Source: a bacterium (GTDB lineage: Bacteria > Patescibacteriota > Saccharimonadia > UBA4664). Taken from it: a DNA stretch of 64,000 nucleotides. The stretch spans positions 328,727-392,726 of the forward strand of contig CP064960.1 of NCBI GenBank assembly GCA_016699105.1, read 5' to 3'. The translations under genes were made by a program, and so were the position numbers. The first letter of the stretch is position 1, and each line of letters begins with the position of its first letter. The notes beneath the pieces are model-generated. The model was not told the DNA's origin. It worked only from the letters and a program-made list of their open reading frames with translations, and searched no databases. Shown in pieces: positions 3,122 through 54,838 of this stretch.

Positions 3122-4146
3122 ATCGGTAAACTGGGATTGGTCGTGAGGCTCAGCGGATCGGAGGTACGCCCTGCTAATGCCAAGTGATAGCCCATGGCGC
3201 CAATCATGGCACCATTGTCGGTACAATATTGGATGGGGGCATAATTCATGGTGATTGGTAACTGTGCCGACACTTCTTGGCGCAGCCGGGTATTAGCTGC
3301 CACACCGCCTGCGATAACGACTGATTTGGGCTGATATTGGGTGTAGGCTTTGCCCAGGCTGGCAACTAATGTCTGACAGACGGTGGCCTGGAAACTGGCG
3401 GCCATGTCGGCTTTCTGTTGATCAGTGAGTAAGGCCGGTATCTGTGTTGAGTGCAAGCGGAAATCAGCACCAACGGCGTGCTGGAGTGCGCGCAAGACGG
3501 CAGTTTTGAGGCCGGAAAAACTAAAGTCATACGGATTATCGAGGCGGGCGATTGGTAATTTGAAGGCTGATTCATCGCCCTGGAGAGCGAGCTTGCCGAT
3601 TTGCGGACCGCCAGGATAGGGTAGGCCAATCATGCGGGCGACTTTGTCGAAGGCTTCACCGGCGGCGTCGTCGCGGGCACTCCCCAGCAAGCGGTATTCG
3701 AGCAGGGATTCAAATAATAATAAATGTGAGTGGTTGCCGGAAACGCTCAGTGATAGGAGTGGAAATTGAGGCTCGGGCTCAATTAAAAAGTTGGCAAAGG
3801 TATGAGCAACCACGTGATTGACGGCGTAGAGCGGTTTGCGGTGGGTGAGTGCCAATGTGCGGGCGGTGAGGGTACCAATGAGTAGACTACCCAATAGGCC
3901 AGGTCCATGGGTAACGGCAATGCCATCGATGTCGTCCCAAGAGACTTTAGCGGTGTCGAGGGCTTCGTGAATGACCGGGAGAATTACTTCTATATGGCTG
4001 CGGGCCGCCACTTCCGGTACGACGCCACCATAGGCTTGATGGATATCAATTTGAGATGCCACCACATTTGACATGGCGTGACGGCCGTCTTCAACGACAG
4101 CCGCTGACGTTTCATCACAAGATGTTTCAATTCCGAGAATGCGCAT
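3118..4146 (-). CDS. tsaD: tRNA N6-adenosine threonylcarbamoyltransferase TsaD (Kae1/YgjD)
   Basis: '[21 protein letters not shown]...' and the overall ASKHA/Kae1 pattern; 342 aa. Confidence 0.9.
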
Positions 4147-4267
4147 AACGAGGGGTAGTATAGCCCAGATGAGTATAAAAATGAAGCGCCCGGCTCTCTC
4201 GCACGATTGGGAGAGAGCCGGGCGAATAGTTACAGCGAGGAAACGTAGCGGCTGCAGGATGTTGGTT

Positions 4268-4780
4268 TCAGGCCGGTCGGGGGTCGAGTGTCATACTCAC
4301 GATACTGAGCAGGCTTTCGTGTTTACAGCCGGTATCGTGAACAGCTTTGGCTATTTCGAATTTGCGGTATGGGCTAAGAGTTGGGCTGCATAGGCGTCCC
4401 TGTACCCAAGCAACTGCCTGTGCGTAAACAGGTAGATTGGCGATGTTGTCAGCTTGGATACTTAAAATAGCAACGACTAGCATGAGCGCGCGCCGGTTAT
4501 CCTTGCAATATGGCACATTTGGTGTGGCCTCGTGACTGCCAATCAGTCGGCGGTAGAGGTATTCGAGTGCAAGTCCAACGGCACCGACTAGCCTGATATC
4601 AGCGTAGTTGACTACAATGCTGCAGGCCAGCAGGTCGTAATACTGTAACCTGGCGTTTTCGCCTTGCAAGCTATCACTCAGGGCAGCATTTATGGTGGCG
4701 GCTAACTGGTTCGGATTTGCCGCCGCCAGAAGATCTGTGATGGCTAAATTTAGGGCGGTCGTATCAGAACGAATTGCCAT
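4268..4780 (-). CDS. hypothetical protein
   Basis: 170-aa ORF with no recognisable motifs. Confidence 0.4.
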   Translation of the reverse strand: MAIRSDTTALNLAITDLLAAANPNQLAATINAALSDSLQGENARLQYYDLLACSIVVNYADIRLVGAVGLALEYLYRRLIGSHEATPNVPYCKDNRRALMLVVAILSIQADNIANLPVYAQAVAWVQGRLCSPTLSPYRKFEIAKAVHDTGCKHESLLSIVSMTLDPRPA

Positions 4781-34622: not shown

Positions 34623-34712
34623 GGAGAGGTCGCATAGTGGCCGAGTGCGCTCGCTTGGAAAGCGGGTATGGGGGCAACTCCATCGAGGGTTCGAATCCCT
34701 CCCTCTCCGCCA
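34623..34712 (+). tRNA. tRNA-Ser (anticodon GGA)
   Basis: Acceptor GGAGAGG/CCTCTCC, discriminator G, genomically encoded CCA, anticodon loop TTGGAAA, long variable arm (class II), T-arm GAGGGTTCGAATCCCTC. Confidence 0.85.
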
Positions 34713-42164: not shown

Positions 42165-44492
42165 ATGAGCGAACAGGTAGGGGTAGAGCAGGGGGTTGGC
42201 CTAGCGGGGGATAGTTCCGTTTGGGCAAATTCTATGCGTGAGCTTGATCAGCCTGAGACGGCACCAAATGAGCCGAGCTCCCGTGAGCAGGCGCAGCCAG
42301 TGGTTGACCAGTTTAAGCAACTTGAGCACGATTTTTGTGAGGCGTCCAAAATCATTCGTGCTGAGGAGCTGTTGGAGGGCCACTATGAAGATAGCGACGA
42401 ACCATCGGTAGAGTTAATCGCACATCGACGTGAGGCATTGATGGCAGAAATGGGACGCTTGCGCCAAGCATGCCAGGCTGATCATCCCTTAATTGCTTTA
42501 CGGGCAGAATACCTTACAGTTTGCCTATATGGTCGTATCGATCACAGCTATACCGATGATCGCTTACTCGATGATGATCTACGGCAAGAATTTGATTCGT
42601 ATCGTGACAAGTACGGCAATGGCTATTTTGATGATCAGCCAGAGTCGCTGGATGAGGACGAGAGCCAGAGTTTCAATCTACCCTTTGTTGACGTTTCGGG
42701 TAAAGTAGTCCTACCAGAGCAAGTATACGAGATGGCCAAGAAAGATCGCCCAAGTTTCGTAGGCGTTAAAGCGTTTCAGGTAGCCCGAGATGGAGTAGTA
42801 TTCCTGGCCGAATCGTTGCCGAGAGGTGGCTATGATGCCGTGAACGTGGTGGCGGAGGCCAGGTTAGATGCGCAGCAATTAGACCAAGCCGAAACGGTAA
42901 AACTGCAGCCTTCGCAGTTAGCGCGTTTTGAGTCTGTAGTGCAGCATGGTCGTCTCGATGTTTTGCGCGAATTACTCCAATGGGGGCCAGAGTTCTTGGA
43001 GAAGGGACACATACCATGGCAAAGCCAAGATCGACAAACTGCTACAGAACGGCGTCGTTACTGGGAAGAGCGGATACCAACATTAGATAGTGCTGAGTGG
43101 CGGCTCGTGTATGAGTCAACTGCGGATAGACAATATGATGAGGACAAACCTGTGTCCGTGGATGATTTCCTGCGTGAGGCATCGCTCGGCGAATATCTGA
43201 CTGAGTTAGGGATTGATTCGGGCAAGGCAAACCAGATGCAGGATCAAATGACAACGTATTTGCGCCAGGTACATCAACAACAAAACAAAGAGTTGGCGCC
43301 GGTGTTTGAGGTACATGCCCTTGATACTTCCAATGATACAACGATGCTCTGGCGTGATTTCTTTTTAGAGCCGGGAATGCAAGAAGCGTTGAGTAAACAG
43401 TTTGAACTCGATATGACCTCGATGTCTTTGGCTGCGCAACGACAGCTCGTGGCTTATCTGGGGCGCAGCACAATTGTGGAATTTAACCGGCTTAAACAGA
43501 TAGTTTCTGGGCGGGATGACGAATCAAAGCTTAGCTTGTTTGAATCGTTTTTAGCTTTAGAGCATGGTGACGAGTTTGGTGATAGCCTACTGACGATTGT
43601 CGAGCAATTACCAGAGGAAACATCGCAAGAAATCCTGAGCGAATTGGCAAATATTCGCCAATTGGCACATGAAAACGGTCAAGAATACCACGATTTTGAC
43701 CCTGAGTTTGCACAGCAATTTGAGCAAGCTTGGGTGTCGCGAACAACGCAGGTATTGTTGAATGCCCAAGAACTAGCCGAGGGGCGCACCCCGAGCGTTA
43801 CTAGGTATGATGGAACAGTCAAAACTATTAGCTCGATCGGTGAGGTAACCTGGGGATTACGATTGCTTAGGGACCGGCTGAGCCGGGAGCTGAGTCATTT
43901 ACGCGATGGTGGTGGCGTGATTGAGCGCCAAGACAGTACAACTACTACTATTCGAATGCCTGATGGTGGGTTGGAGCAATTGCGGCCGTATGCCGCTGAG
44001 CAAGATCAGCACGATGAAGAGCATCATTTTGATGATGAGGCACGCGCTAACTCATTGGCCAGTACTGATAGCTGGCCATTTACAGAATCTCGGAATGACC
44101 CCGCCAGAGTTCGGGCGTTAAGTATTCGGATTGATCGTGAGGGTATCTGGAGAAATGAGGCAGGCGAACCGCTGCGGGATCGTCAAAACAAACTCGTAAA
44201 CTTGCCGACAGGCGAGTATGGCTGGGTCTCATTAGATATTGGTGGATTGGTGGGTGAACCGGATGATCCCAATGTGCGTATTGGGGCGTTGATGGCAGCA
44301 GGGGCTGCTATATTTGCCAATCGTCGGGGTCAGGTTTCTCATCAGCATCATGTGAGAGAGGTGTTTGCTGAGCGCTTTGGTCGGAAAGAGGAGTTTGCGC
44401 GCTTGGTTCGCTTTCGGCAGGAGAGGTTGCTGCGACAGATATCGAAGACTGTTTCGCGCCCCGCTTCATCAGAGCAAAAACTTGCCTCATAG
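42165..44492 (+). CDS. large acidic hypothetical protein (775 aa)
   Basis: No recognisable motifs; strongly acidic. Confidence 0.5.
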   Translation: MSEQVGVEQGVGLAGDSSVWANSMRELDQPETAPNEPSSREQAQPVVDQFKQLEHDFCEASKIIRAEELLEGHYEDSDEPSVELIAHRREALMAEMGRLRQACQADHPLIALRAEYLTVCLYGRIDHSYTDDRLLDDDLRQEFDSYRDKYGNGYFDDQPESLDEDESQSFNLPFVDVSGKVVLPEQVYEMAKKDRPSFVGVKAFQVARDGVVFLAESLPRGGYDAVNVVAEARLDAQQLDQAETVKLQPSQLARFESVVQHGRLDVLRELLQWGPEFLEKGHIPWQSQDRQTATERRRYWEERIPTLDSAEWRLVYESTADRQYDEDKPVSVDDFLREASLGEYLTELGIDSGKANQMQDQMTTYLRQVHQQQNKELAPVFEVHALDTSNDTTMLWRDFFLEPGMQEALSKQFELDMTSMSLAAQRQLVAYLGRSTIVEFNRLKQIVSGRDDESKLSLFESFLALEHGDEFGDSLLTIVEQLPEETSQEILSELANIRQLAHENGQEYHDFDPEFAQQFEQAWVSRTTQVLLNAQELAEGRTPSVTRYDGTVKTISSIGEVTWGLRLLRDRLSRELSHLRDGGGVIERQDSTTTTIRMPDGGLEQLRPYAAEQDQHDEEHHFDDEARANSLASTDSWPFTESRNDPARVRALSIRIDREGIWRNEAGEPLRDRQNKLVNLPTGEYGWVSLDIGGLVGEPDDPNVRIGALMAAGAAIFANRRGQVSHQHHVREVFAERFGRKEEFARLVRFRQERLLRQISKTVSRPASSEQKLAS

Positions 44493-45194
44493 CTTGGGCG
44501 ATCTGGGGACTTTCGATGATTGTGCCCATGGCTTCATGCCCAAATGAGATGAACGCGACTTTGTCACCGTAAATATCGATTTCGACAGGCGCTTGATAAT
44601 CTTGTGGCTCGTACCAGGTACGGTTGAGCAGATGTTGTGCATCAATATTTGGGTCACGATTCGCATCTGGTATACGGGGAGTAAGAGCTTCGACGGTAAT
44701 GTTGAGTTTGGTTCGTTTGGCGATGTACTGACTCATGAACTGCGAACCCAGAAAGTCATTTTCAGCCGGTGTACGCATCAGGCTAATAGGTTGGCGGGTA
44801 CGCAGCATATCCTCGTATATCTGGATCAAGCCGGTTTTACCCTGATAGAAGCGGACACCAGGTTGCTCGAAAACGTATAAAAATAGGTCATGAGTTGGGG
44901 CATGAAGTTGCGCAGTCGGGTTTCGTGCTCAATTACCTGATTGCGACGGGATTCCATGAGCTTTTCCAGATTGGCAGGGTTTTCAGGGCGATAGGTCAAT
45001 TTGGAGCCAGTGCCGGATTTGACGGCGAGCGTGAGCTCTTCCAGTTGTTTAAGGACTTCATAAGCGTTGGTGCGAGTAATCTGGATCTTATCTGATAATT
45101 GTGGTGGTGTGAGGGTGCCGTTTGAGATTAGCGCCAGATAGGCGCGGGCTTGGGTTGTGTTGAGGCCGATTTGTTCGAGAAGTGAAGCGTCCAT
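44308..45194 (-). CDS. TrmB-family transcriptional regulator (HTH plus C-terminal sugar-binding-like domain), apparent frameshift near 44828
   Basis: N-terminal winged-helix 'LNTTQARAYLALISNGTLTPPQLSDKIQITRTNAYEVLKQL' and a TrmB-like C-terminal domain in the adjacent ORF. Confidence 0.55.
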
Positions 45195-46055
45195 AGGTGT
45201 AAGTTAGCACAAGCGGGATAAATTGTCAATGAGAAATTGACAGAAAATGGTTTGTTTTTATATCTGTTAGAATGTAATACGCGAGTGACTAATTGACATA
45301 TTAAAGTCCTTGTGGTAAAGTGTGTTCATTCGATGAGGCAGACATAAAATACCTACTCTCGAAAGTCAAGCTAACAATTACATACGTACACATTTGGTAA
45401 GACACGTTCTAGGGTCAGAAGCTCGAAAACGGTCCAAATATAGGTTGAGCCCTTGGGTGTTCCCTGTATCTGGATCGCGAGCGTGTCTTTCTATCGTTTT
45501 AAGGGCAGTTTTAGGACCTTTAAAACCACTAATTGAGATGATCTAGAACTCGGTTAGTACCCGCGAAGGTGCATCTAGTAACGGGTAACAGACGATTAAT
45601 GGACTATTCCTTGGTCCGTCGCACCAAGTACGCGCTTTGTAGCGAGATATCCGCGTGATGATCAGAAGGCATCATGAATGCAGGTTGGCGAAACTATTTG
45701 TTCGCCCGTCACGCGCTATCTCTCTGGAAAGAGAGAAATTTAAAAATCGATCACAAATTTTTGAGCGGAAGCTGCCTCTCGTAATCAATAGTCCCACGCC
45801 AACATGAATACCTGCGCGATCGGATGTACTAGAAGGAATACGGGAGACAGGTTCCACTGAAGGAACCAGTATTTGGGCGAAAGTCCAAAAAAGTACCTTT
45901 TGAAAAGTTGTTTGAATATGGTCGCTGGTCGGCGTTGCGGAAACGTATACGATGGTGTTTTCCCAAGGGGTATCGATGAGAATCGACGCTCGCTGGGGAG
46001 ACGCCAACGGGGCGGATCCAACAATGGGGCAGATGTGCTCCGGAAGGAGGTGGTC

Positions 46056-46463
46056 TTCGTGATCACCCAGACGACCGAGACCACGACCCCGACCGCCCCG
46101 GTGACAGGGCGGCTGGTTCCGCGGCCGCCCGCGGGCCGCAAGGGGGTCGTCAACCCCCGGACCCACGCGGCCACCCGCGAGGCGGCGCTGCTGGACCAAC
46201 TGGCGGCCGAGCTGACCGCCCACCAGGCGGAGGCCGCCGAGGCGGCGACCCGGCAGGGTTTGATCCTGCCACCCGTCGGCCGGGTCATTGACCCGGCCAC
46301 CCTCCGCGAGGAGGGTCTGCCCGAGATCGTGGGGCAGACCCGGACGGTGCAGTCGGCACGGCCTGCGACGCCGCGGCGTCAACCGATGATGCCCCGTAAC
46401 GGGGGGCGTCGCTACAATGGCCCGCTTACGCGGGCCGAGCTGGCGGCAAGGGTCGCCAGCTGA
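46056..46463 (+). CDS. Thr/Pro/Arg-rich hypothetical protein in the high-GC island
   Basis: GGAAGGAGG then GTG start. ~135 aa at ~70% GC. Confidence 0.4.
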   Translation, partial: FVITQTTETTTPTAPVTGRLVPRPPAGRKGVVNPRTHAATREAALLDQLAAELTAHQAEAAEAATRQGLILPPVGRVIDPATLREEGLPEIVGQTRTVQSARPATPRRQPMMPRNGGRRYNGPLTRAELAARVAS

Positions 46464-46764
46464 CAACCAGCCGCAGGTGAGGCAGCTGCGGGATATAAAT
46501 TCCTGCCTCAACGTTCGAGCCGGGTTGACGGCTATGAGCGGGCCAGCGCGAAAGCGCCCGACCGCATCACCATGGGTTGTTTTGACCCAGATCGTTTGAA
46601 CATTTTGTTCACAAGTTCGTTTGTGCCCGCCGAGAGCTTTTCTCGGTAGTACCACAAGGAAATCGTTTCGCGACTTTTTTCGAAAATCGCTGAACGATGT
46701 GGTGCGCCACACTTGTACATTTTTGTACGAATCGGGGAGGTCGGCCAACCGGCCGCTACCTCCC

Positions 46765-46819
46765 CCTGACTTCCGTGGATGCGTATCTGCGTTGATGAGT
46801 CCGAAAGGACGAAAAGTCA
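46765..46819 (+). ncRNA. type-III hammerhead ribozyme motif, copy 1 (C3U variant)
   Basis: Helix III CUGACU/AGUCAG, cleavage triplet UUC, helix I hairpin CGUGGAU-GCGU-AUCUGCG, core 'UUGAUGA' (U at position 3 instead of C), helix II GUCC-GAAA-GGAC, then GAAA. Confidence 0.5.
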
Positions 46820-46934
46820 GACCAGTACTTTGATTAGTGATAGATGTTCCGGACTGGATATTTGTTATTGAGATACACCGATGACAGGTATCCGGTCCGG
46901 GAAGCGCCCAGACCACAAATCCCCTGGAGGGGTC

Positions 46935-47174
46935 ATGCTTTGGAAGACCACGTATCAGGAATCACCGTATGAGAGTACGGGACAGTATGGAGTGTATGTT
47001 TGGCACCGGTTTTTCGGCCGGTGCCAAACAGGATGGCAGGTGGTGCCAATCGCCTGCCATCCTGATGGCGAAAAAAGAATGGATGCCTTTTTGGCTTTCA
47101 TTCGCCAACCGCGGCGGTTCGCCGCGGTGGAAAGGAGGGCAAAAGAGTTGGGCTTCAGACTTGACAAGGTCTAA
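46935..47174 (+). CDS. small hypothetical protein (79 aa) after conserved leader
   Basis: 'CCCCUGGAGGGGUCAUGC' leader/RBS conserved downstream of all three hammerheads. Confidence 0.35.
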   Translation: MLWKTTYQESPYESTGQYGVYVWHRFFGRCQTGWQVVPIACHPDGEKRMDAFLAFIRQPRRFAAVERRAKELGFRLDKV

Positions 47175-47224: not shown

Positions 47225-47420
47225 TTCAAATCCTCGGAAGTACCAAAGGAACTCAGGTTTAGAACCCGAGTGGTGCGAGACGGGTAACCGGGAGCAACCC
47301 ATAATATGCTCCCCACTCAACCCGAGTGTTTCATATCTTCTGCGTTCCTACCGCCGATTACCGCGTAATCGGCGGGTGAGAGGGGTGATGAAACACTCAG
47401 GCTGGGTGAAAGCTCAGAAA
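47225..47420 (+). repeat. repeat B copy 1 (diverged)
   Basis: Shares 'GCTCCCCAC..AACCCGAG...TTCA.A.CTTCTGC.TTC', 'GTGAGAGGGGT' and 'TCAGGCTGGG' with copies at ~50072 and ~52217. Contains an 11-bp perfect hairpin CCGCCGATTAC-CGC-GTAATCGGCGG (47352-47376). Confidence 0.5.
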
Positions 47421-47496: not shown

Positions 47497-48423
47497 ATGA
47501 CTGCGTATATGGCATTGGATCCTCGTCCGGCGGCTCGACAGACAATGCTCGAGCTTCTCTCCACCCCGACCTTTGGGGTGGAGGTGACGGTGCCCGAGCT
47601 GGGGTCGGCGTGCCTTCTGGGCAATGCTGACCCCCAGCACACCGGGGGGCGGGCAGATATGTCAGCCATCGAGGGCCTTGCCGCGTTGTTTCGCGGTGAG
47701 GCACAGGTAGCCACCGTGCTGCCTGACCTCGATAGCCTTGGTTCCATGGCGGTGCTGGACATCGCCATGGACGCCATTGCCCAGCTCGGTGCGTTGGCAG
47801 GAGAGATCCTGCGGCGCATCGAGCTAATCGGCCGTGCTGATCGCTTCGAGAGAGGCGAATGGCCCGGTCGGCGACCCCTGCCGACCCTCGACCAGCCGTG
47901 GTCGGACGTGCTTTCGGGCGCGTCAGACACACGCGAGCTTGCGGCCATGGGGGCCGTTGTCGCGGACCACCGGCTGCCGGTGGAGGAGCGGGTGCGTTTG
48001 CTGCGCATCTGGCTCTCCACCGGCGAGGAGCCGTTGGAGTATCGCCAGCGAGTTGAGGCTGAACGGGCCGAGATGCTGGCTGCCCTGACGGGTGGCGAGA
48101 TCTTGGTTCGCGAGGCTGCCAAGGGCCATATCGCCACGGTGGTTTCAACCCACCGGGCTGGCATGGCCATTGGCTACCACCGGGCTCCGGTGGTAGTGGC
48201 GCAGAACCCGGCTTTTAGTTTTAAGGGTTCGGCGCCGGTCGTTAAGTTCACGATAGCCCAGTTCAGAGTGGGTTACGTGGATCTGTCGGCCGCTCTGACT
48301 GAGCTGGCCGGACGTGAGCCCGGCTGGGGCGGATCGCCAACGATTGGCGGCTCACCCCAGGGGGTCTCGTCGGGCTTGTCGCTCGACGAGGTTGTAGCGG
48401 TCGTGGAGGCTCATCTCCTCTGA
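47497..48423 (+). CDS. hypothetical protein (308 aa) in the high-GC island
   Basis: AGGAGGTGA RBS with 8-nt spacing; no recognisable domain. Confidence 0.5.
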   Translation: MTAYMALDPRPAARQTMLELLSTPTFGVEVTVPELGSACLLGNADPQHTGGRADMSAIEGLAALFRGEAQVATVLPDLDSLGSMAVLDIAMDAIAQLGALAGEILRRIELIGRADRFERGEWPGRRPLPTLDQPWSDVLSGASDTRELAAMGAVVADHRLPVEERVRLLRIWLSTGEEPLEYRQRVEAERAEMLAALTGGEILVREAAKGHIATVVSTHRAGMAIGYHRAPVVVAQNPAFSFKGSAPVVKFTIAQFRVGYVDLSAALTELAGREPGWGGSPTIGGSPQGVSSGLSLDEVVAVVEAHLL

Positions 48424-48648: not shown

Positions 48649-48733
48649 GCACTGCCTTCCAACCCCAACTGCACCGGCAGTCATCCGGGACAAGGCGCTC
48701 AAAAGGAAATTGGCCAACAGTGCCAATGCGCGC

Positions 48734-48890
48734 CAGGGAGCGACTCCTCAAGACGCTGAACCACGGTTAATACCCGTTGGTCACTGTCATCGCGACAACA
48801 ACAGGTTTGCCGGTTTCCTCCGCAAGGAAATAACCGGTGCAACTCGGCGGATGTGTATCCGCCCTGACGAGTCCGAAAGGACGAAAGTTG
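48734..48890 (+). ncRNA. ~157-nt structured repeat A, copy 2, ending in a canonical type-III hammerhead ribozyme (48839-48890)
   Basis: Helix III GCAAC/GUUG(G), cleavage after CUC (C48845), helix I GGCGGAU-GUGU-AUCCGCC, core CUGACGA, helix II GUCC-GAAA-GGAC, GAAA. Upstream ~100 nt is near-identical to copy 3. Confidence 0.65.
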
Positions 48891-49028
48891 GCTGTTCTTT
48901 AAAGAGATTCCTCGATATTCGGTTGGTTCTGAGAGTAATTGCCAGGTCGGATATTCGCTATTGCGTGGAGCGATGGCAGATATCCGGTCTGGGGGAATAG
49001 CTCAGGCTACGAGATCCTTGGAGGGGTC

Positions 49029-49493
49029 ATGCGAGTTTTTCGAGAGTTCCGTGTTCGTGCCGGAAGCACGTTAGAGACGGATGGGGTGCGATTCGACGCC
49101 CCTGGACCTTGGGGATGGAGCACCCAGATCCCGTATCCGCGCGGTGGACGTGCCGCGGGTGTGGGGTTAGTGGAAAGTCCAAGTACTTTCCACGGCGAGA
49201 GCCTTGGTTGGCTGTGCAGCGAGAAATCGCTGCGTCTCGGTGCAAGATTTGCACCGAGCTTGACCACAACCCAGCCTTTACCAGGCTGGAAGGATCGGCT
49301 GGCCGAGCTGAGGGGGCTCGAGCAGACAATGCTGGACGCTCTGGTAGCGCTGCTCAGCTGCGAACGGCCCGTAGACCTGCGGGTTGAGTCCCTTGAGCGG
49401 GCGGGGCTGCTCGTGGTGGGGGCGGTATCGTGCTCACGAAGCACGAGCCGGATATCGCCCGACGATTGGGCCTACTGTTCCGTAAGGAGGTAA
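49029..49493 (+). CDS. hypothetical protein (155 aa) after conserved leader
   Basis: The 'CCUUGGAGGGGUCAUGC' leader is the only support. Length is uncertain given assembly indels. Confidence 0.35.
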   Translation: MRVFREFRVRAGSTLETDGVRFDAPGPWGWSTQIPYPRGGRAAGVGLVESPSTFHGESLGWLCSEKSLRLGARFAPSLTTTQPLPGWKDRLAELRGLEQTMLDALVALLSCERPVDLRVESLERAGLLVVGAVSCSRSTSRISPDDWAYCSVRR

Positions 49494-49795
49494 TTGAAGT
49501 TGTCTCCTGCGTCGAGGAGCACGCAATCGGGGGGTACCTCAAGGTCCTCTGCCGAAGGTCGCGGGCCCAGGGGTGCCCTCATACGGTTGGTCTGTTTACT
49601 CAGACGGACCAGAGGGGGCTTACTCCCTCCTCGGTAAGGAGGATTACTTCCCAGGAGCAATCAGGAGCTGGGACAGTCTCCTGAAGCAGTTTGCTCAAAT
49701 CGTGGAGGGCCGCGCATCCGCAGCGACGACATCTGTCGGCTGAGGCGCGAACTCAACGAGCCTTTGAAAGGAGGTGGAACGAATCGGTCCACCAA

Positions 49796-50229
49796 TGCTG
49801 TTTCTTGGCACGGTGATGGCTGTGCGGGCTGTCTGGGCTCTATGTAGTGGAAGCTACAAGGGTAAGCCAGCCCGGCGGGGATCGCCAATATGGTATCCAT
49901 TGTGGTTTGCGCTTGCCGCAAGCGTGAGCGTTGCCGTGATGGGGCCATATTTATCGGCTCCGAATGATTCGGGCCCACCGTCAGACGGCTTCTGGCAAAA
50001 CCCGCCCTCTGATCGCGGATCGAAAAGATCAGAACTGCCACATAAGGACTTCGCGAACGCGGAGGTGGCGCAAAACGTATTTACGGTAAAGGGGAGTCGC
50101 CTAAGAGCTCCCCACCCAACCCGAGGGCTTCACACCTTCTGCATTCCGACAACTCATTTGAGCAATCGGAGGGTGGTCGGAGTGGTGGAGCTCTCAGGCT
50201 GGGCGCCAATCAGGTTCCCAGTAGTTTGA
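49796..50229 (+). CDS. small hydrophobic hypothetical protein (extent uncertain)
   Basis: GAAAGGAGGTGG RBS. The N-terminal two-TM segment resembles the 48457 ORF. The 3' part may be out of frame. Confidence 0.3.
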
Positions 50230-50250
50230 AACACCCGTGAGAGGGGTAAG
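50072..50250 (+). repeat. repeat B copy 2
   Basis: 'GGTGGCGCAAAACGTATTTACGGTAAAGGGGAGTCGCCTAAGAGCTCCCCACCCAACCCGAGGGCTTCACACCTTCTGCATTCCGAC...' shows ~90% identity over ~85 nt to copy 3. Includes the GGGGAG-N11-CTCCCC hairpin. Confidence 0.55.
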
Positions 50251-50252
50251 CG

Positions 50253-50537
50253 ATGAACGTCGTCTTCGGTACCGTGAAATTCGTCAACGCCGAACGAGGG
50301 TTTGGCTTCGTCCGTCTCGATGGGGGCGCCGGAGATGTCCACTTCTGGCTCGATCGCGGATTTACCTCCGCAGTGGGCTGGCGGGCGGACCCAATGGGTG
50401 CCATGCGAAGCGGTGAAAACTTTGGTCGGCTGGAAATCGTTCGACCGGCGACACCAAAGCCTGGCGAACGTCTGGCCCTGAGTATTATCTGCCGGAACCG
50501 CACAGACTCGCCGCGGTCAGACCCAAGCGAAAGCTAA
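50253..50537 (+). CDS. cold-shock-domain-like small protein (degenerate CSD)
   Basis: 'GTVKFVNAERGFGFV' resembles the CspA RNP1 motif 'GTVKWFNAEKGFGFI'. The rest diverges. Confidence 0.4.
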   Translation: MNVVFGTVKFVNAERGFGFVRLDGGAGDVHFWLDRGFTSAVGWRADPMGAMRSGENFGRLEIVRPATPKPGERLALSIICRNRTDSPRSDPSES

Positions 50538-50563
50538 GGGCCCGACTGCCGAGTGGTGGGCGT

Positions 50564-51322
50564 TTGAAGTGCCCTGGAAGGCGGCGCAGGCCGAAATCGA
50601 AGCCCGAAAAGAGCAGTACCCGGTTGGTCTGTATTACTGGCCGATCGAGTATGGAGACGGACGCGCTGCACGTGTCATACCGGTGCCCAGGGAGCACGAA
50701 ACGTATACGAGCCACTACGATTACGGCCGTGTACCTGCTCACTGGGCGGTGGTGGAGCGTGCAGGGAGTTACCGCACGAGTCGTTTGCCCGTGGGATGGT
50801 TCCGGCGGATTGGGACACTTATTTGTCGCCGGGCTTGCTCGAGCGTTTCTCGATTGTTCGGGGCGAGCTGAGTATGTGGCTGCCCTGCGATCCGAACTGA
50901 CTGACCTAGAGGATCGTGTTGTGGTTGCCGAGCGCGCGTCGGGTCCGAAGAGGGCGAAGCCAAAATTGCGGCTGGATGGCGTCGGAAACGGCGAGATCCA
51001 CTACATGGGGGTAAGCCTTCAAGTGACAGGTTTTCGTATCACAACGGGCAAGAAGGAAGGCTTCAGTTGGCCTGGCGACCCTGACGACCCAGAGTACACC
51101 GAGGTCACCTATAGCATCGAGCTGGGTGGCCATGAAGTCTCGGCCCTACCAGGTCCGGTGGTGGTGTTGGCGAGAGCCGCCGAGAAGAAGGAAGACGTGC
51201 GTGATAGCTGGGATATCTTGATATCTGAGCTCAGCCGGGGAGTACAACACGACCTTAGCTGGATGAGAAAGCGAGTTGTTGCGATTCACGCCGAGATCGA
51301 ACGCCAGGAGGCCTCAGAGTAG
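50564..51322 (+). CDS. hypothetical protein (frame ambiguous; alternative ORF 50569-50871)
   Basis: Two overlapping long ORFs in different frames. High GC makes ORF calls unreliable. Confidence 0.3.
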   Translation: MKCPGRRRRPKSKPEKSSTRLVCITGRSSMETDALHVSYRCPGSTKRIRATTITAVYLLTGRWWSVQGVTARVVCPWDGSGGLGHLFVAGLARAFLDCSGRAEYVAALRSELTDLEDRVVVAERASGPKRAKPKLRLDGVGNGEIHYMGVSLQVTGFRITTGKKEGFSWPGDPDDPEYTEVTYSIELGGHEVSALPGPVVVLARAAEKKEDVRDSWDILISELSRGVQHDLSWMRKRVVAIHAEIERQEASE

Positions 51323-51370
51323 GAATTCTGGGACAAAACGCGCATAAGGACCAGCTCGTGAGCTGGGCGT

Positions 51371-51528
51371 CAGGGGAGCGACTCCTCAAGACGTTGAACC
51401 ACGGTTAATACCCGTTGGTCACTGTCATCGTGACAACCAAAGGTTTGCCGGTTTCCGCCGCAAGGAAATAACCGGTGCAACTCGGCGGATGTGTATCCGC
51501 CCTGACGAGTCCGAAAGGACGAAAGTTG
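51371..51528 (+). ncRNA. ~158-nt structured repeat A, copy 3, ending in a canonical type-III hammerhead ribozyme (51477-51528)
   Basis: Hammerhead core identical to copy 2. 8 substitutions over ~157 nt between the copies. Confidence 0.65.
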
Positions 51529-51577
51529 TCAGCCAGTTGGTCCGGGAAACGCCCAGACCACGAGGCCCTGGAGGGTC

Positions 51578-51811
51578 ATGCTGCAGCTGGTTTCGATTCA
51601 TTGGGGTCCGCTCGACGAGCCCCACGAGGACGTCATCATTCACGATGGAGTCCCGGCGCGGCGACTTGCCGTGCCGAACTACTACGATGAAGGGCAGACG
51701 GTCGAGGAGTCGATCTTCTGCCCGAGCACAAGGTGGGCAGCAAGTTACATCGCTGCCCTCGTGGCGCGGGGCTATCCCGGCCGGAGCCACATGGCACGGA
51801 TCTTGAGATGA
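51578..51811 (+). CDS. small hypothetical protein (77 aa) after conserved leader
   Basis: The 'CCCUGGAGGGUCAUGC' leader is the only support. Confidence 0.35.
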   Translation: MLQLVSIHWGPLDEPHEDVIIHDGVPARRLAVPNYYDEGQTVEESIFCPSTRWAASYIAALVARGYPGRSHMARILR

Positions 51812-52216: not shown

Positions 52217-52360
52217 TGGGTGGCGCAAAATCGTTCTACGGTAAAGGGAGTCGCCTAAGAGCTCCCACCTAACCCGAAGGCTTCATACCTTCTGCATTCT
52301 GACTGCTTTATGAAATATCAGCGAGCAGTTGGAGTGATGGAGCCTTCAGGTTTGGTTGAC
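52217..52360 (+). repeat. repeat B copy 3 at right edge of the high-GC island
   Basis: Near-identical to copy 2 over ~85 nt. GC drops to host level immediately downstream. Confidence 0.55.
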
Positions 52361-52435
52361 CAAAATCAGATTGATTGTTCGCAGCCAAAATTGATACTAT
52401 TGGCGAACTTGTAACTACGACAATATCTACTTAAG

Positions 52436-53875
52436 TTGCCAGACGGCGCCGAGGAGCCTACCATAGAACTAGACGTTTGCGGGGGTATTTTGGCCGATTT
52501 GACCGAAAAATGTGGCGTTTTTGGCGCTGTTACTGAGCATAGTTATACCGCTCGGGTGACGTATTATGGGCTGTGGGCACTGCAGCACCGCGGCCAAGAG
52601 GGCAGTGGTATCGCTAGTTGGGATGGCCAGCGCATGCACTCTCGTGTGGGCGCGGGACTGGTGGCGCACGTGTATGATCCAGGAGATCTCGAGCGGCTTG
52701 ATGGGTGCATAGCTATTGGCCACAATCGATATTCGACATCTGGTGCCGATGGCGGGGCACATGCTCAGCCGGTAATTGACCGAGATTTAGATCTGGCTTT
52801 CGCACATAATGGTAATTTGCCTTCTACTAAGGCGCTGGAAGCGTTTTTGCGCAAACACCATATCAATCCACGCCCATTGAATGATTCCGAAATGATGACA
52901 CGGGCAATTGGTGTGTATTTGCGTGACGGGATGAGTCTTGAAGATGCAGTTGTGGCGGCATGGCCGTTGTTTACTGGCGCTTTTTCGTGCGTGGTCATGC
53001 AAGAAGGTCATTTGGTGGCATTTCGAGATGAGTGCGGGATTCGGCCATTGGCTCTGGGAAAACTTGAGGATGGTTACTGTGTATCGAGTGAATCGTGTGC
53101 CTTTGATACAGTGGGCGCCGCTTTTTGCGCGAAGTGAAGCCTGGAGAACTTTGTCAGTCTGACGGCTGAAAAGTGACGGCACGCCAAGTGGTGACGGCTC
53201 GACCCAAATTGGATGTGTTTGAGTTGGTCTATTTTGCCCGCCCTGATAGTTTGATCGCTGGCCGCAAAGTTAATGAAGTCCGGCGGGAAATGGGCAGACA
53301 GTTGGCTCGAGAATTTCCAGTTGTCGCTGATGTTGTCATACCAGTGCCCGATTCGGGGATTCCGATGGCCCTAGGATACAGTGAGCAGAGTGGGGTGCGA
53401 TTTGATCATGGTTTTATCAAAAACCGCTATATTCACCGGACGTTTATTAAAGCCGACACAAGTAATGCGGAGCGGGATGTGCGAGTAAAGCTCAATCCCG
53501 TGCCGGAAGTAGTCATGGGTAAAAGCGTGGTGGTAATCGATGATTCCATAGTGCGAGGAACCACAACCGGGCAAATCGTTGGCATGCTGTATGGAGCCGG
53601 TGCTCAGTGTTCATGTTCTGGTGAGTTCGCCGCCGGTTTTGTACCCAGACTTTTATGGAATCAACACGCCGAGCCAGACAGAATTGATAGCCGCCAATCG
53701 CAGCGTTGAAGAAATTCGGGAGCATATCGGTGCGGATAGCTTGGGCTACCTGTCGGTGACTGGTATGGTAAAAGCAACCGGATTGGCACGTCAAAAGTTG
53801 AACCTGTCGTGTTTACTGGTGAATATCCGATTGATATCGGTGAGCGGGCGCTCACTATTCAAAAAGTTTTACTAG
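52436..53875 (+). CDS. purF: amidophosphoribosyltransferase PurF, at least three apparent frameshifts
   Basis: 'CGVFGAV' N-terminal nucleophile region, 'IGHNRYSTSG', PRTase motif 'VVVIDDSIVRGTT'. Four collinear ORF pieces; start uncertain. Confidence 0.8.
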
Positions 53876-53940: not shown

Positions 53941-54838
53941 ATGAAATTACGACAAATCATTGGAATCGCAGTCATCATTTTAATGGCTGCGGGAGGCGTG
54001 GCCTTGGTGCGGTCGCAGCCAGCGGGTGCACCAGAAAATAGATTGAAGGTAGCGGCCAGCTATTATCCGTTTTATGAAGTTGCCGCTAGAGTAGGCGGCG
54101 ATCATGTGGTCGTATCCAACCTAACGCCTGCAGGAGCGGAACCCATGATTTCGAACCATCAGCCCAAGATCTAGCTGGGGCTCAAGATTCGGCGGTTTTT
54201 GTATATAATGGTGTCGGCTTTGAACCATGGGTAGAAGGATTCGTTCGTGATTACAAAGGTGCTGCCGTTAAGGGTAGTGACAAGATAGAGCTGCGGACTT
54301 CGGCTGAGGGCGTGGTTGATCCTCACTATTGGCTCGATCCGGTCTTGATGCAGCAGGTAGTTGATACGGTCAGAGAAGCTTTGGCCAAGGCCGATCCCGC
54401 CAACGCTGGTTACTACCAGACAAAAGCAGATGAGTATAAGGGCAGTTGGACGATCTCGATAATCGTATGGGTTTGAGCTTGGCACGCTGTCAAACCAGCG
54501 TTATTGTGACAAATCATGCGGCATTCAATTATTTGGCGTACCGCTATGGGTTAACGAGTCAGGCAATTACCGGCTTATCGCCAGAAGCCGAGGCTAGTCC
54601 AGAGCAGCTGGCAGCACTATCGACGCTCGTAAAAGAACAAGGCATCAAATATGTCTTTATGGAAAAATTAGCATCACCCAAATTGGCTGAAACATTAGCT
54701 CAAGAAGCAGGAGTTCAAGTAGGTGTGCTTGATCCCATTGAAGGCTTAACGACTGCGGATATAGCCGCCGGAAAGGATTACTCGAGTGTCCAAAAAGAAA
54801 ATTTGGCAGCCCTCCAACGAGCCCTTACATGCCGGTAA
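53941..54838 (+). CDS. znuA: metal (Zn/Mn) ABC transporter substrate-binding protein, TroA/ZnuA family, apparent frameshifts
   Basis: Signal peptide, 'VAASYYPFYEVA', then '...HDFEPSAQDLAGA...VVDPHYWLDP' in shifted frames. Confidence 0.7.

Follow-up and report, generated by a model that had tools for sequence, protein, structure and literature searches.

Three type III hammerhead ribozymes of a Patescibacteria-centred subfamily that probably process a single operon transcript

We analysed a 64,000-nucleotide (nt) stretch of a patescibacterial genome (GTDB lineage Bacteria; Patescibacteriota; Saccharimonadia; UBA4664; GenBank assembly GCA_016699105.1, contig CP064960.1, positions 328,727 to 392,726 of the forward strand), which we call the window, and found that it carries three hammerhead ribozymes. 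All three lie between open reading frames (ORFs) on the + strand, at 46.8, 48.8 and 51.5 kb; positions below are those of the window, and features are on the + strand unless marked otherwise. We consider it probable, though well short of certain, that these are functional, tertiary-stabilised type III hammerheads that cut one + strand transcript in cis into insulated, end-protected mRNAs. A 2019 review lists the purpose of genome-encoded bacterial hammerheads as unresolved (PMC6765202). According to the part of the study by Perreault et al. (2011, PMC3088659) on which we draw, clustered bacterial hammerheads flank variable genes in prophage-like regions, native transcripts of about 2 kb from three bacteria were cleaved completely, and cleavage in vivo was obtained for a cluster in Agrobacterium; the same part of that study already proposes, and in part demonstrates, that clustered hammerheads turn polycistronic RNA into gene-length mRNAs. 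The set in the window is one of ordinary hammerheads in this already known clustered-operon arrangement.

The second copy of the ribozyme (48839-48890) reads, in order, GCAACUC, GGCGGAUGUGUAUCCGCC, CUGACGA, GUCCGAAAGGAC, GAAA and GUUG, and the third (51477-51528) is equal to it base for base. An earlier annotation of this DNA, made from its letters alone and referred to here as the sequence-only reading, had quoted this sequence at 48839-48890 and its exact repetition at 51477-51528, and both are present. In each copy the 5' strand of helix III is GCAAC, ending in C16.2, followed by U16.1, and C17 corresponds to C48845 in copy 2 and C51483 in copy 3; cuts are predicted after these two residues. 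Stem I is GGCGGA(U)/(A)UCCGCC, stem II is G10.1UCC-GAAA-GGAC11.1, and helix III, with GUUG as its 3' strand, comprises 5 bp in copy 2 and 6 bp, the terminal one a G-U pair, in copy 3. Every core position is canonical (C3 U4 G5 A6 C7 G8 A9, G12 A13 A14, A15.1-U16.1, G10.1-C11.1, and C as H17), so the core, cleavage triplet and cut sites given by the sequence-only reading are correct. Its type III assignment is likewise correct, with helices I and II capped and helix III open. The minimum free energy (MFE) fold of copy 3 is the hammerhead three-way junction.

A direct repeat of 165 nt (48727-48890 and 51364-51528, 95% identical) has the two copies at its 3' ends. Their identity is therefore the mark of a recent duplication and not of independent conservation, and because both sit within one repeat they do not count as independent evidence. 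The earlier contention that two identical cores argue against a chance match is weak for this reason.

Searches with the Rfam model Hammerhead_3 (RF00008) gave a divided answer to the check that the sequence-only reading had proposed. At Rfam's curated threshold the sole call in the whole 64-kb window was a tRNA-Ser, with no hammerhead. Under permissive settings the model aligned to both copies over its full length (model positions 1-54, E ~1e-6 with 18 kb searched), so that the family resemblance is recognisable, and copy 2 reached 40.5 bits and copy 3 43.3 bits, both below the gathering threshold of 48.5 bits. We attribute the low scores to a model tuned to longer loops and do not take them as a sign that a defining structural feature is missing. 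By the Rfam check, then, the original claim would be half refuted, and it is covariation across the family that rescues it.

Copy 1 (46766-46821, cut predicted after C46773) was not reported by RF00008 at E<=1. Its MFE fold is a three-way junction. Its helix III, CUGACUU/AAGUCAG, differs from the GCAACU/AGUUG(C) of the other copies at every variable position and is still fully paired, and its stem I shows G-U changes. The core departs from the canonical form at one position, U3 (UUGAUGA), so that U-G replaces the C3-G8 pair; N17 is C. This U3 was found in 3 of ~149 matches to a search pattern that permitted C or U there, namely copy 1 and two loci fetched for comparison, L075 and L105, which carry the same sequence. 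A base-calling error may be another origin of U3 in copy 1.

The search string YTGANGAGTCCGAAAGGACGAAA occurs in 117 genome stretches of a one-genome-per-species collection and in 19 viral contigs. Labels of Patescibacteria, also called the candidate phyla radiation (CPR), attach to 93 of the 117 (79%), while 9 are unclassified and 15 carry other labels. For at least two of these 15, the flanks of the match are identical to a CPR contig: hammerhead matches and flanks agree between L005 and L047, drawn from Phycisphaerales and Wolfebacteria metagenome-assembled genomes (MAGs), and between L075 and L105, drawn from Acidobacteria and Taylorbacteria MAGs. These pairs suggest mis-binned contigs, and the non-CPR share of the family is therefore probably overstated. 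Among 137 parsed instances, stem I had at least 5 bp in 126 and helix III at least 4 bp in 127. N17 was C in 99 instances, U in 20, A in 16 and G in 2, that is, C, U or A in 135 of 137.

To describe the pairing across this family, we used a gapless alignment of 120 distinct members, pre-filtered for paired stems (92% of raw instances passed). In stem I, 99.8% of cells were paired and six of the seven pairs changed on both sides. Six of the seven helix III pairs covaried, the inner four being paired in every member and represented by up to five pair types, and U16.1 and A15.1 were invariant in all 120. The covariation score was 0.728, against 0.08-0.12, and never more than 0.118, when the partners were slid by one to three columns. 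Copies found with a model of the family also carry GCUC/GAGC, GUCG/CGAC, GCCG/CGGC and GCCC/GGGC as stem II (L007 and other loci), so stem II covaries too.

This family covariance model, R1, was built from the 120 members. In the 64-kb window it found exactly three copies, scoring 70.6 bits (copy 3), 68.7 bits (copy 1) and 68.5 bits (copy 2) with E ~1e-20, and the next-best match reached 10.8 bits. Across the fetched loci it returned 168 matches in L001-L100 and 48 in the other 40 loci searched, more than 200 in all at E<=0.01. At least 41 family copies in 15 related loci were scored with RF00008, and all fell short of its threshold. On comparative grounds, copies 2 and 3 are confirmed as genuine hammerheads, the support coming from copy 1, with its own paired helix III, and from the family covariation; the same alignments and scores identify the family as a real, large type III hammerhead subfamily missed by standard annotation. 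Exact-pattern searches scored as one each of several clusters of four to seven hammerheads within 8 kb (L002, L014, L037, L026 and L063), and copy numbers per genome are therefore underestimated.

These data bear on the possibility that the window copies are inactive relics or resemble hammerheads by chance. Scores below the Rfam gathering value, the core substitution of copy 1, and frameshifted neighbouring genes that point to a degraded assembly or genome would all fit such a reading. Against it are the family-model E values, the perfect core of copies 2 and 3, the compensatory changes in helix III of copy 1, and covariation throughout the family. Family covariation and family-model scores effectively refute a chance match or relic, and we regard it as extremely improbable.

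The core and stem II string is also present in three IMG/VR records of 322-457 nt (L125, L126 and L136), lengths that we take to match virusoid or satellite RNAs. In the viral contig L121 (IMGVR_UViG_3300001605_000031, 422-1578), a phage array of 12 tRNA genes contains the hammerhead core string, which begins 3 nt past a tRNA-Gln (end 1435) and ahead of a tRNA-His (start 1504) and scores 34.9 bits with the family model; this may be a variant form whose stem I draws on sequence next to the tRNA. As a general pattern of hammerheads abutting tRNA 3' ends in viral contigs this was set aside, since only L121 was confirmed, and L123, L128 and L135 had a hairpin only.

Natural hammerheads are stabilised by docking of loop 1 on loop 2. 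In the paper by Dufour et al. (PMC2632901) the docking motif of loop 1 is UNmYN, most commonly as the hexaloop UN3YN, and that of loop 2 is RNnA, most commonly as GNRA and AAAA tetraloops; loop 1 touches the 3' A of loop 2 through its 5' U and its penultimate pyrimidine. The window ribozymes match this motif exactly when they are given a 6-bp stem I closed by the hexaloop UGUGUA and a 4-bp stem II capped by GAAA. Family-wide, conservation exceeds 90% in loop 1 although the stems vary freely, and loop 2 alternates solely between GAAA and AAAA, both of them classes named in that paper. By sequence criteria, then, the window ribozymes are predicted to dock and so to be tertiary-stabilised, and would be expected to be fast at physiological Mg2+. 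The suggestion that they are minimal, with no obvious loop-loop contacts and perhaps modest activity, finds no support in these loops. The type III hammerheads of sTRSV(+), sLTSV(+) and CChMVd share the topology, the U-initiated stem I loop of 6-7 nt, the 4-bp stem II starting from G10.1-C11.1, the GNRA cap and the UNmYN/RNnA motif (PMC2632901). Those plant satellite and viroid ribozymes process rolling-circle multimers of small non-coding replicons, whereas the window hammerheads belong to an operon of protein-coding genes on a chromosome and show no sign of an RNA replicon.

The surroundings of each ribozyme follow a common plan. Upstream of copy 1 is a stable hairpin (46734-46765, -26 kcal/mol) that ends 8 nt before the cut. 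Upstream of copies 2 and 3 are the two copies of a non-coding element (48727-48838 and 51364-51476), the last hairpins of which span 48804-48844 (-16.8 kcal/mol) and 51442-51482 (-15.6 kcal/mol); these end 1 nt from the cut because they re-absorb the GCAAC strand of helix III. The element, about 110 nt with several hairpins, was duplicated together with hammerheads 2 and 3 and is absent before copy 1 and in all other loci. Structure at this position is a property of the family, in that the last 45 nt of the 5' product have a median folding energy of -11.5 kcal/mol, against -7.6 for background (p ~7e-11), and reach -10 kcal/mol or below in 64% of the family versus 33% of background.

Downstream of all three copies is a related leader, consisting of a hairpin GGUCCGGG...CCCAGACC, the Shine-Dalgarno (SD) sequence GGAGGGG and an AUG, with 162, 184 and 95 nt between cut and AUG in copies 1, 2 and 3. 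Aligned with one another, leader 1 (46856-46939) holds hairpins, the SD GGAGGGG and the AUG of ORF A and includes repeat families D5/D6; leader 2 (48949-49032) holds hairpins, an SD and the AUG of ORF C; and leader 3 (51539-51580) holds the hairpin GGUCCGGGAAACGCCCAGACC, the SD GGAGGG at 51570-51575 and the AUG of ORF F at 51578. The start regions (46925-46937, 49019-49031 and 51568-51580) share the string (C)CUGGAGGG(G)UCAUGC, and the ORFs that follow look unrelated. The SD within this string is predicted to pair with CCC(C) just upstream, and the pairing could form a small translational control hairpin.

From this arrangement we propose the following course of events. As RNA polymerase passes each ribozyme, the RNA would fold co-transcriptionally and cut after C17 (C46773, C48845 and C51483). 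The upstream fragment would then end in a stable hairpin a few nucleotides from its 2',3'-cyclic phosphate, which would guard it against 3' exonucleases. The GCAAC strand set free from copies 2 and 3 would fold into the upstream hairpin, so that the substrate strand would be gone and re-ligation prevented. The downstream fragment would start with a 5'-OH and the compact body of stems I and II, followed by the hairpin and the ribosome-binding site (RBS); in copy 3 the freed GUCAG could find a partner in the core's CUGAC, so that two hairpins stack at the 5' end. Each gene block would thereby become its own mRNA, with defined and protected ends and a translation context free of upstream RNA. The sequence, the fold, the covariation, the intergenic co-oriented placement and the enrichment of upstream hairpins and downstream motifs are direct observations; cleavage in vivo, a single transcription unit, the effects on stability and translation and the use of a boxA-like motif by Nus factors (see below) are what we infer from them.

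The engineered insulator RiboJ offers a functional analogy. It joins the sTRSV hammerhead to a 23-nt hairpin upstream of the RBS and raises transcript about 2-fold and protein 2- to 10-fold, its documented benefit being expression that is higher and independent of context (PMC6206723). The order of ribozyme, hairpin, RBS and gene is the same in the window, as is the cut that strips upstream RNA and leaves a structured 5' end. RiboJ is placed behind a promoter, whereas the window module is natural, is repeated within an operon and has an additional hairpin at the upstream 3' end and in some cases a boxA-like motif, and the likeness is one of function only.

The upstream hairpins also allow for a conditional switch, in which sequestration of GCAAC would make cutting depend on conditions or on the speed of transcription and so tune the ratio of polycistronic to processed RNA. 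The MFE fold of a 234-nt context does pair GCAAC with GGUUUG of the upstream hairpin and not within helix III, and helix III is just 5-6 bp long. The same hairpin is equally well explained as a 3'-end structure formed after cleavage, however, and the thermodynamic predictions take no account of tertiary docking, by which the active fold is stabilised. In copy 1 and most relatives the hairpin is adjacent to helix III with no overlap, and no ligand-binding or sensor element is evident. We give regulated cutting of this kind a rather slight chance, and prefer the processing described above.

Four nucleotides past helix III of copy 2 is a boxA-like motif, GTTCTTTAAAG (48894-48904). It agrees at 10 of 11 positions with GYTCTTTAANA (PMC5725501), a gamma-proteobacterial consensus that may not be the host's, and it is the sole + strand GYTCTTTRA in the 64 kb, located in a leader that is not translated, no more than 135 nt from a start codon. 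Of 147 family members, 36 have GTTCTT in the 40 nt that follow, mostly at offsets 5-9. Antitermination by boxA and Nus factors acts on transcripts that are long and poorly translated, such as those of rRNA operons and CRISPR arrays (PMC5725501, PMC7665894). The window resembles these systems in having the 10/11 motif in an untranslated leader and a long, partly non-coding region, and differs in that the consensus is gamma-proteobacterial and perhaps not the host's and that one of the three copies carries the motif. If the motif at copy 2 recruits NusB/NusE, it would shield the long, partly untranslated RNA downstream from Rho; its place directly behind the cut suggests that cleavage would sever the tether of any upstream Nus complex, and the boxA signal would be re-supplied afterwards. 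We considered and rejected the downstream GUUCUUU as an alternative partner of AAAGGAC (loop and stem II), since 14 of 24 ribozymes with another stem II keep the motif. The boxA-like string for comparison with rRNA operon leaders and spacers is GUUCUUUAA; no rRNA operon was present in the window or in the fetched loci.

Where the family lies in genomes is consistent with a role in mRNA processing. Members are intergenic, with 64% of them free of any ORF of at least 100 aa; for random 56-mers the figure is 17% (p 2e-24). In the 400 nt downstream, 67% of members have the start of a co-oriented ORF, versus 34% (p 3e-11). Many members have an SD and AUG within 20-40 nt downstream. The genes that follow are strikingly varied: the first downstream ORFs of 135 members form 120 sequence clusters. 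Among the annotated cargo are Csx3 (2), DEAD and ResIII helicases, radical SAM enzymes, RadC and the MoxR of ternary systems, along with MazF/PemK, NUDIX, M23 peptidase and methyltransferases.

Such diversity is also what would be seen if the hairpin-hammerhead(-boxA) module were a selfish or recombinational repeat, spreading among the accessory islands of Patescibacteria as a junction for shuffling cassettes, with any effect on expression secondary. Besides the 120 clusters among 135 ORFs, this explanation draws on copies that are more alike within loci than between them, on the patchy presence of the module even among close relatives of one of the window genes (ORF B, described below), and on the foreign GC content of the island in which the ribozymes sit. 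Yet a DNA repeat needs no purifying selection on a catalytic fold, with its compensatory changes, nor does it call for strict co-orientation, intergenic location and a fixed position just 5' of an SD and AUG; no transposase or integrase was tied to the modules, though no systematic search for one was made. We assign a small but real chance to a primarily recombinational role. It is compatible with processing, and both may be true together.

Circularisation is a third possibility raised by the repeats. On this account the ends of a 2,638-nt RNA (48846-51483), once excised, would come together as a hammerhead again and be sealed either by the ribozyme acting as a ligase or by an RtcB-type enzyme, giving a circular RNA like those of plant retrozymes and viroid-like RNAs. 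The 5' end of the unit does hold the ribozyme body and the 3' end the GCAACUC strand that matches it, and two identical copies in 165-nt direct repeats recall the geometry of retrozymes, non-autonomous retroelements of plants and animals in which type III hammerheads, also placed within direct repeats, flank a unit that is released when both cleave themselves. Across the fetched loci, helix III strands of adjacent copies are cross-compatible in 23 of 34 pairs within loci versus 17% between loci, and in L007 helix III is identical in eight of eight copies while stems I and II covary. Within loci, however, conservation of helix III does not clearly exceed that of stem I (0.27 vs 0.30 differences per site), and paralogy may therefore account for the compatibility. 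Helix III cannot form again in the unit between cuts 1 and 2, the genes of the unit between cuts 2 and 3 look ordinary and have SD sites, the neighbourhood shows no reverse transcriptase or replication function, and the released 3' strand of copies 2 and 3 is predicted to fold into the upstream hairpin. Perreault et al. sought circular or spliced products in comparable bacterial clusters and, in the portion of their paper used here, report none (PMC3088659). Retrozymes are moreover non-coding, eukaryotic, circularised and retrotransposed, whereas the window unit is coding and bacterial, with no circle or reverse transcriptase evident. We hold circularisation to be very unlikely and retain cutting into separate linear mRNAs as the preferred explanation.

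A related array was seen in L007 (JANLIU010000041.1, 2400-6700), where at least 10 family hammerheads are spaced alternately by ~80 and 220-250 nt, without ORFs between them, and flank a conserved RNA of ~90 nt with three hairpins, present in five to seven copies. Inside the array is a gene of 592 aa with a full-length match to the type IV-A CRISPR-associated DinG helicase model (E 1.3e-40), and no CRISPR repeats were seen in L007. It may be a ribozyme-processed array of small RNAs or guides. A broader idea is that the whole family constitutes a general RNA-excision system of Patescibacteria, releasing a 2.6-kb circle in the window and, in sister genomes, arrays of small structured RNAs, with guide-like RNAs replacing Cas6-processed CRISPR RNA (crRNA). 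We consider that idea speculative and quite unlikely.

Several observations weigh against the reading that we favour. The RF00008 scores of the window copies are under the gathering threshold. Helix III of copy 2 is just 5 bp, and its MFE fold prefers alternative pairings. In copy 1, U3 opposite G8 may mean that this ribozyme is slow or decaying. The boxA-like motif accompanies copy 2 only, of the three window copies. The covariation set was pre-filtered for paired stems, so its figures are somewhat inflated, even with 126-127 of 137 instances passing. None of the four loci holding the closest relatives of ORF B (L137-L140) has a hammerhead, which makes the ribozyme dispensable for ORF B and casts it as an optional, portable 5'-untranslated-region module on accessory cargo. 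Finally, the cleavage, the extent of the transcript and the chemistry of its ends are all predicted from sequence.

Set beside the clusters of Perreault et al. (2011), to the extent that the part of that paper drawn on here describes them, the window is alike in having several hammerheads within a few kilobases on one strand, bracketing genes or blocks of inconstant identity, and in having a MarR/TrmB-type regulator nearby, as in at least one described case. It is unlike them in that all its copies are type III and belong to one narrow subfamily (GUCC-GAAA-GGAC, loop 1 UGUGUA), that the host chromosome here is not a recognisable prophage, and that its modules have an upstream hairpin and, in the family, often a boxA-like motif, neither of which is met in that part of the paper.

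We see three consequences. First, with a Patescibacteria-centred subfamily below the Rfam threshold, routine annotation under-counts ribozymes in this clade. Second, the consistent module (3'-end hairpin, ribozyme, often a boxA-like motif, hairpin, SD and AUG) provides an insulator model that predicts RNA ends and so can be tested. Third, highly variable cargo of an accessory or conflict type goes with the ribozyme, including Csx3, RadC, MazF, type IV DinG and a DHH-like phosphoesterase family. If the boxA link is true, self-cleavage would cut the RNA tether of an upstream Nus complex and the signal would be supplied anew after each cut.

The ribozymes lie in an island of distinct composition on a bacterial chromosome, with genes for TsaC, MurE, DnaG, PolA and HolA and archaeal-type genes for GlmM and PGI/PMI in the window. 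This gene content, together with the relatives of the window's genes, suggests Patescibacteria as the host. From ~45.9 to 52.35 kb the GC content is ~60%, against ~50% in the flanks, and the flanking genes are housekeeping ones (DnaG, PurF, ZnuABC, PolA). Frame plots indicate + strand coding at 45873-46463, 47497-48423, the distal part of 49029-49493, 50253-50537, ~50800-51322 and 51578-51811. Searches of the island ORFs against Pfam, PADLOC and PHROGs returned nothing except a weak cold-shock match for ORF D. A phage megablast of 44.5-54.5 kb gave no match, and PHROGs gave only the same weak cold-shock match. No prophage or integrase neighbourhood was seen at the locus, although no systematic integrase search of the window was made. 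An rRNA operon at 46-52 kb, to which high GC, few ORFs and boxA-like motifs had pointed, was rejected as an explanation of the region, there being no Rfam rRNA in the window or in 15 related loci and real coding segments in the frame plot.

A gene for a TrmB-family regulator (44308-45194, - strand; PF01978, 43.2 bits against a cut-off of 25.6) is divergent from the ribozyme operon and is split by a frameshift near 44830-44870. TrmB homologues adjoin hammerheads in 11 other loci, and one adjoins an ORF B homologue in L137. The divergent gap contains a palindrome read from the sequence, TTGTCAAT..ATTGACA (~45221-45242), and one promoter-like site, a sigma-70-like candidate with an extended -10 (TTGACA-17-TAAAGT, 45293-45321; a consensus match only, 10/12). 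Terminator-like sites in the island are no commoner than in shuffled sequence. These features suggest that the region is probably one long + strand transcript, starting near 45.3 kb and ending at ~52.4 kb.

In order along this presumptive transcript, the first third comprises ORF G, a hairpin, hammerhead 1, its leader, ORF A, module X1 and ORF B; the second, the pre-ribozyme element, hammerhead 2, the boxA-like motif, a leader, ORF C, module X2 and ORFs D and E; and the last, the pre-ribozyme element, hammerhead 3, a leader, ORF F, module X3 and purF. ORF G (45873-46463), the first of the island, encodes 196 aa with a GC content at third codon positions (GC3) of ~0.9; it was recognised from the frame plot and lacks a family match. 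ORF A (46935-47174, 79 aa) has its SD and AUG in leader 1, and ORF C (49029-49493, 154 aa) has its coding signal in the distal half. ORF D (50253-50537) gave a Pfam cold-shock domain (CSD) match at E 9e-4, below cut-off, and a PHROG cold-shock match at E 1.6e-3. ORF E (50564-51322) shows a coding signal in the frame plot from ~50800, and ORF F (51578-51811, 77 aa) was likewise recognised from the frame plot.

ORF B (47497-48423, 308 aa) belongs to a conserved uncharacterised family with a DHH/DHHA1-like (RecJ/NrnA-like) predicted fold. The family has at least 490 homologues of ~305-310 aa, none with a Pfam domain, and its named sources are Patescibacteria. An AlphaFold2 (AF2) model has a predicted local distance difference test score (pLDDT) of 92, and with it Foldseek retrieved RecJ and NrnA-type pAp phosphatase at probability 1.0 and template modelling (TM) scores of 0.30-0.35. 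Invariant DPQH, D..D and Gly-rich motifs in the alignment fit DHH/DHHA1 phosphoesterases, and a profile search of PDB sequences found nothing significant. From the modelled fold, ORF B could act on nanoRNA or cyclic nucleotides. Its closest relatives, at 58-71% identity, are those in L137-L140; the L137 homologue is beside a divergent TrmB regulator and a large helicase, and the L138 homologue follows RadC near a TraG-like coupling protein. Island genes reach a GC3 of up to 0.9 in a genome of ~50% GC (45873-46463 and 47497-48423), and the L137 homologue (3786-4721) is itself a local GC spike, 0.6-0.7 against 0.45, so high GC travels with the ORF B gene. One homologue was found in the actinobacterium Nesterenkonia flava. 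The composition suggests that the island genes were acquired recently and horizontally from a GC-rich donor.

A second repeated RNA element, module X, occurs three times in the operon as an irregular hairpin of ~95 nt with a small hairpin. Module X1 (47290-47420; -63.4 kcal/mol, z -6.6) is 77 nt before ORF B, module X2 (50064-50215; -63.3 kcal/mol, z -4.75) is 38 nt before ORF D, and module X3 (52219-52365; -56.7 kcal/mol, z -6.2) is at the end of the GC-rich island, 71 nt before the purF-like gene. Comparison of the copies shows seven pairs in which both partners have changed. We discarded module X as a further ribozyme class, since Rfam gave no match to this non-coding element at E<=1. A degenerate probe of 29 nt had no match in the metagenome and viral collections, and none of the fetched loci held a matching sequence. 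Module X could be a site for RNase III or for recombination, or a processing element of another kind, and ACCCAAC at the base of the stem allows an attC-like reading.

Several neighbours of the island are broken. Besides the TrmB gene, the PurF-like gene (52436-53875) is in three pieces, and the ZnuA-like gene (53941-54838) is present as fragments covering profile positions 1-32 and 142-263 only. Either assembly indel errors or real pseudogenisation beside the island would account for these genes. Larger genes close by are intact, including those for a 775 aa protein and for PolA (953 aa). The sole RNA gene called in the window is that for tRNA-Ser(GGA), at 34623-34712.

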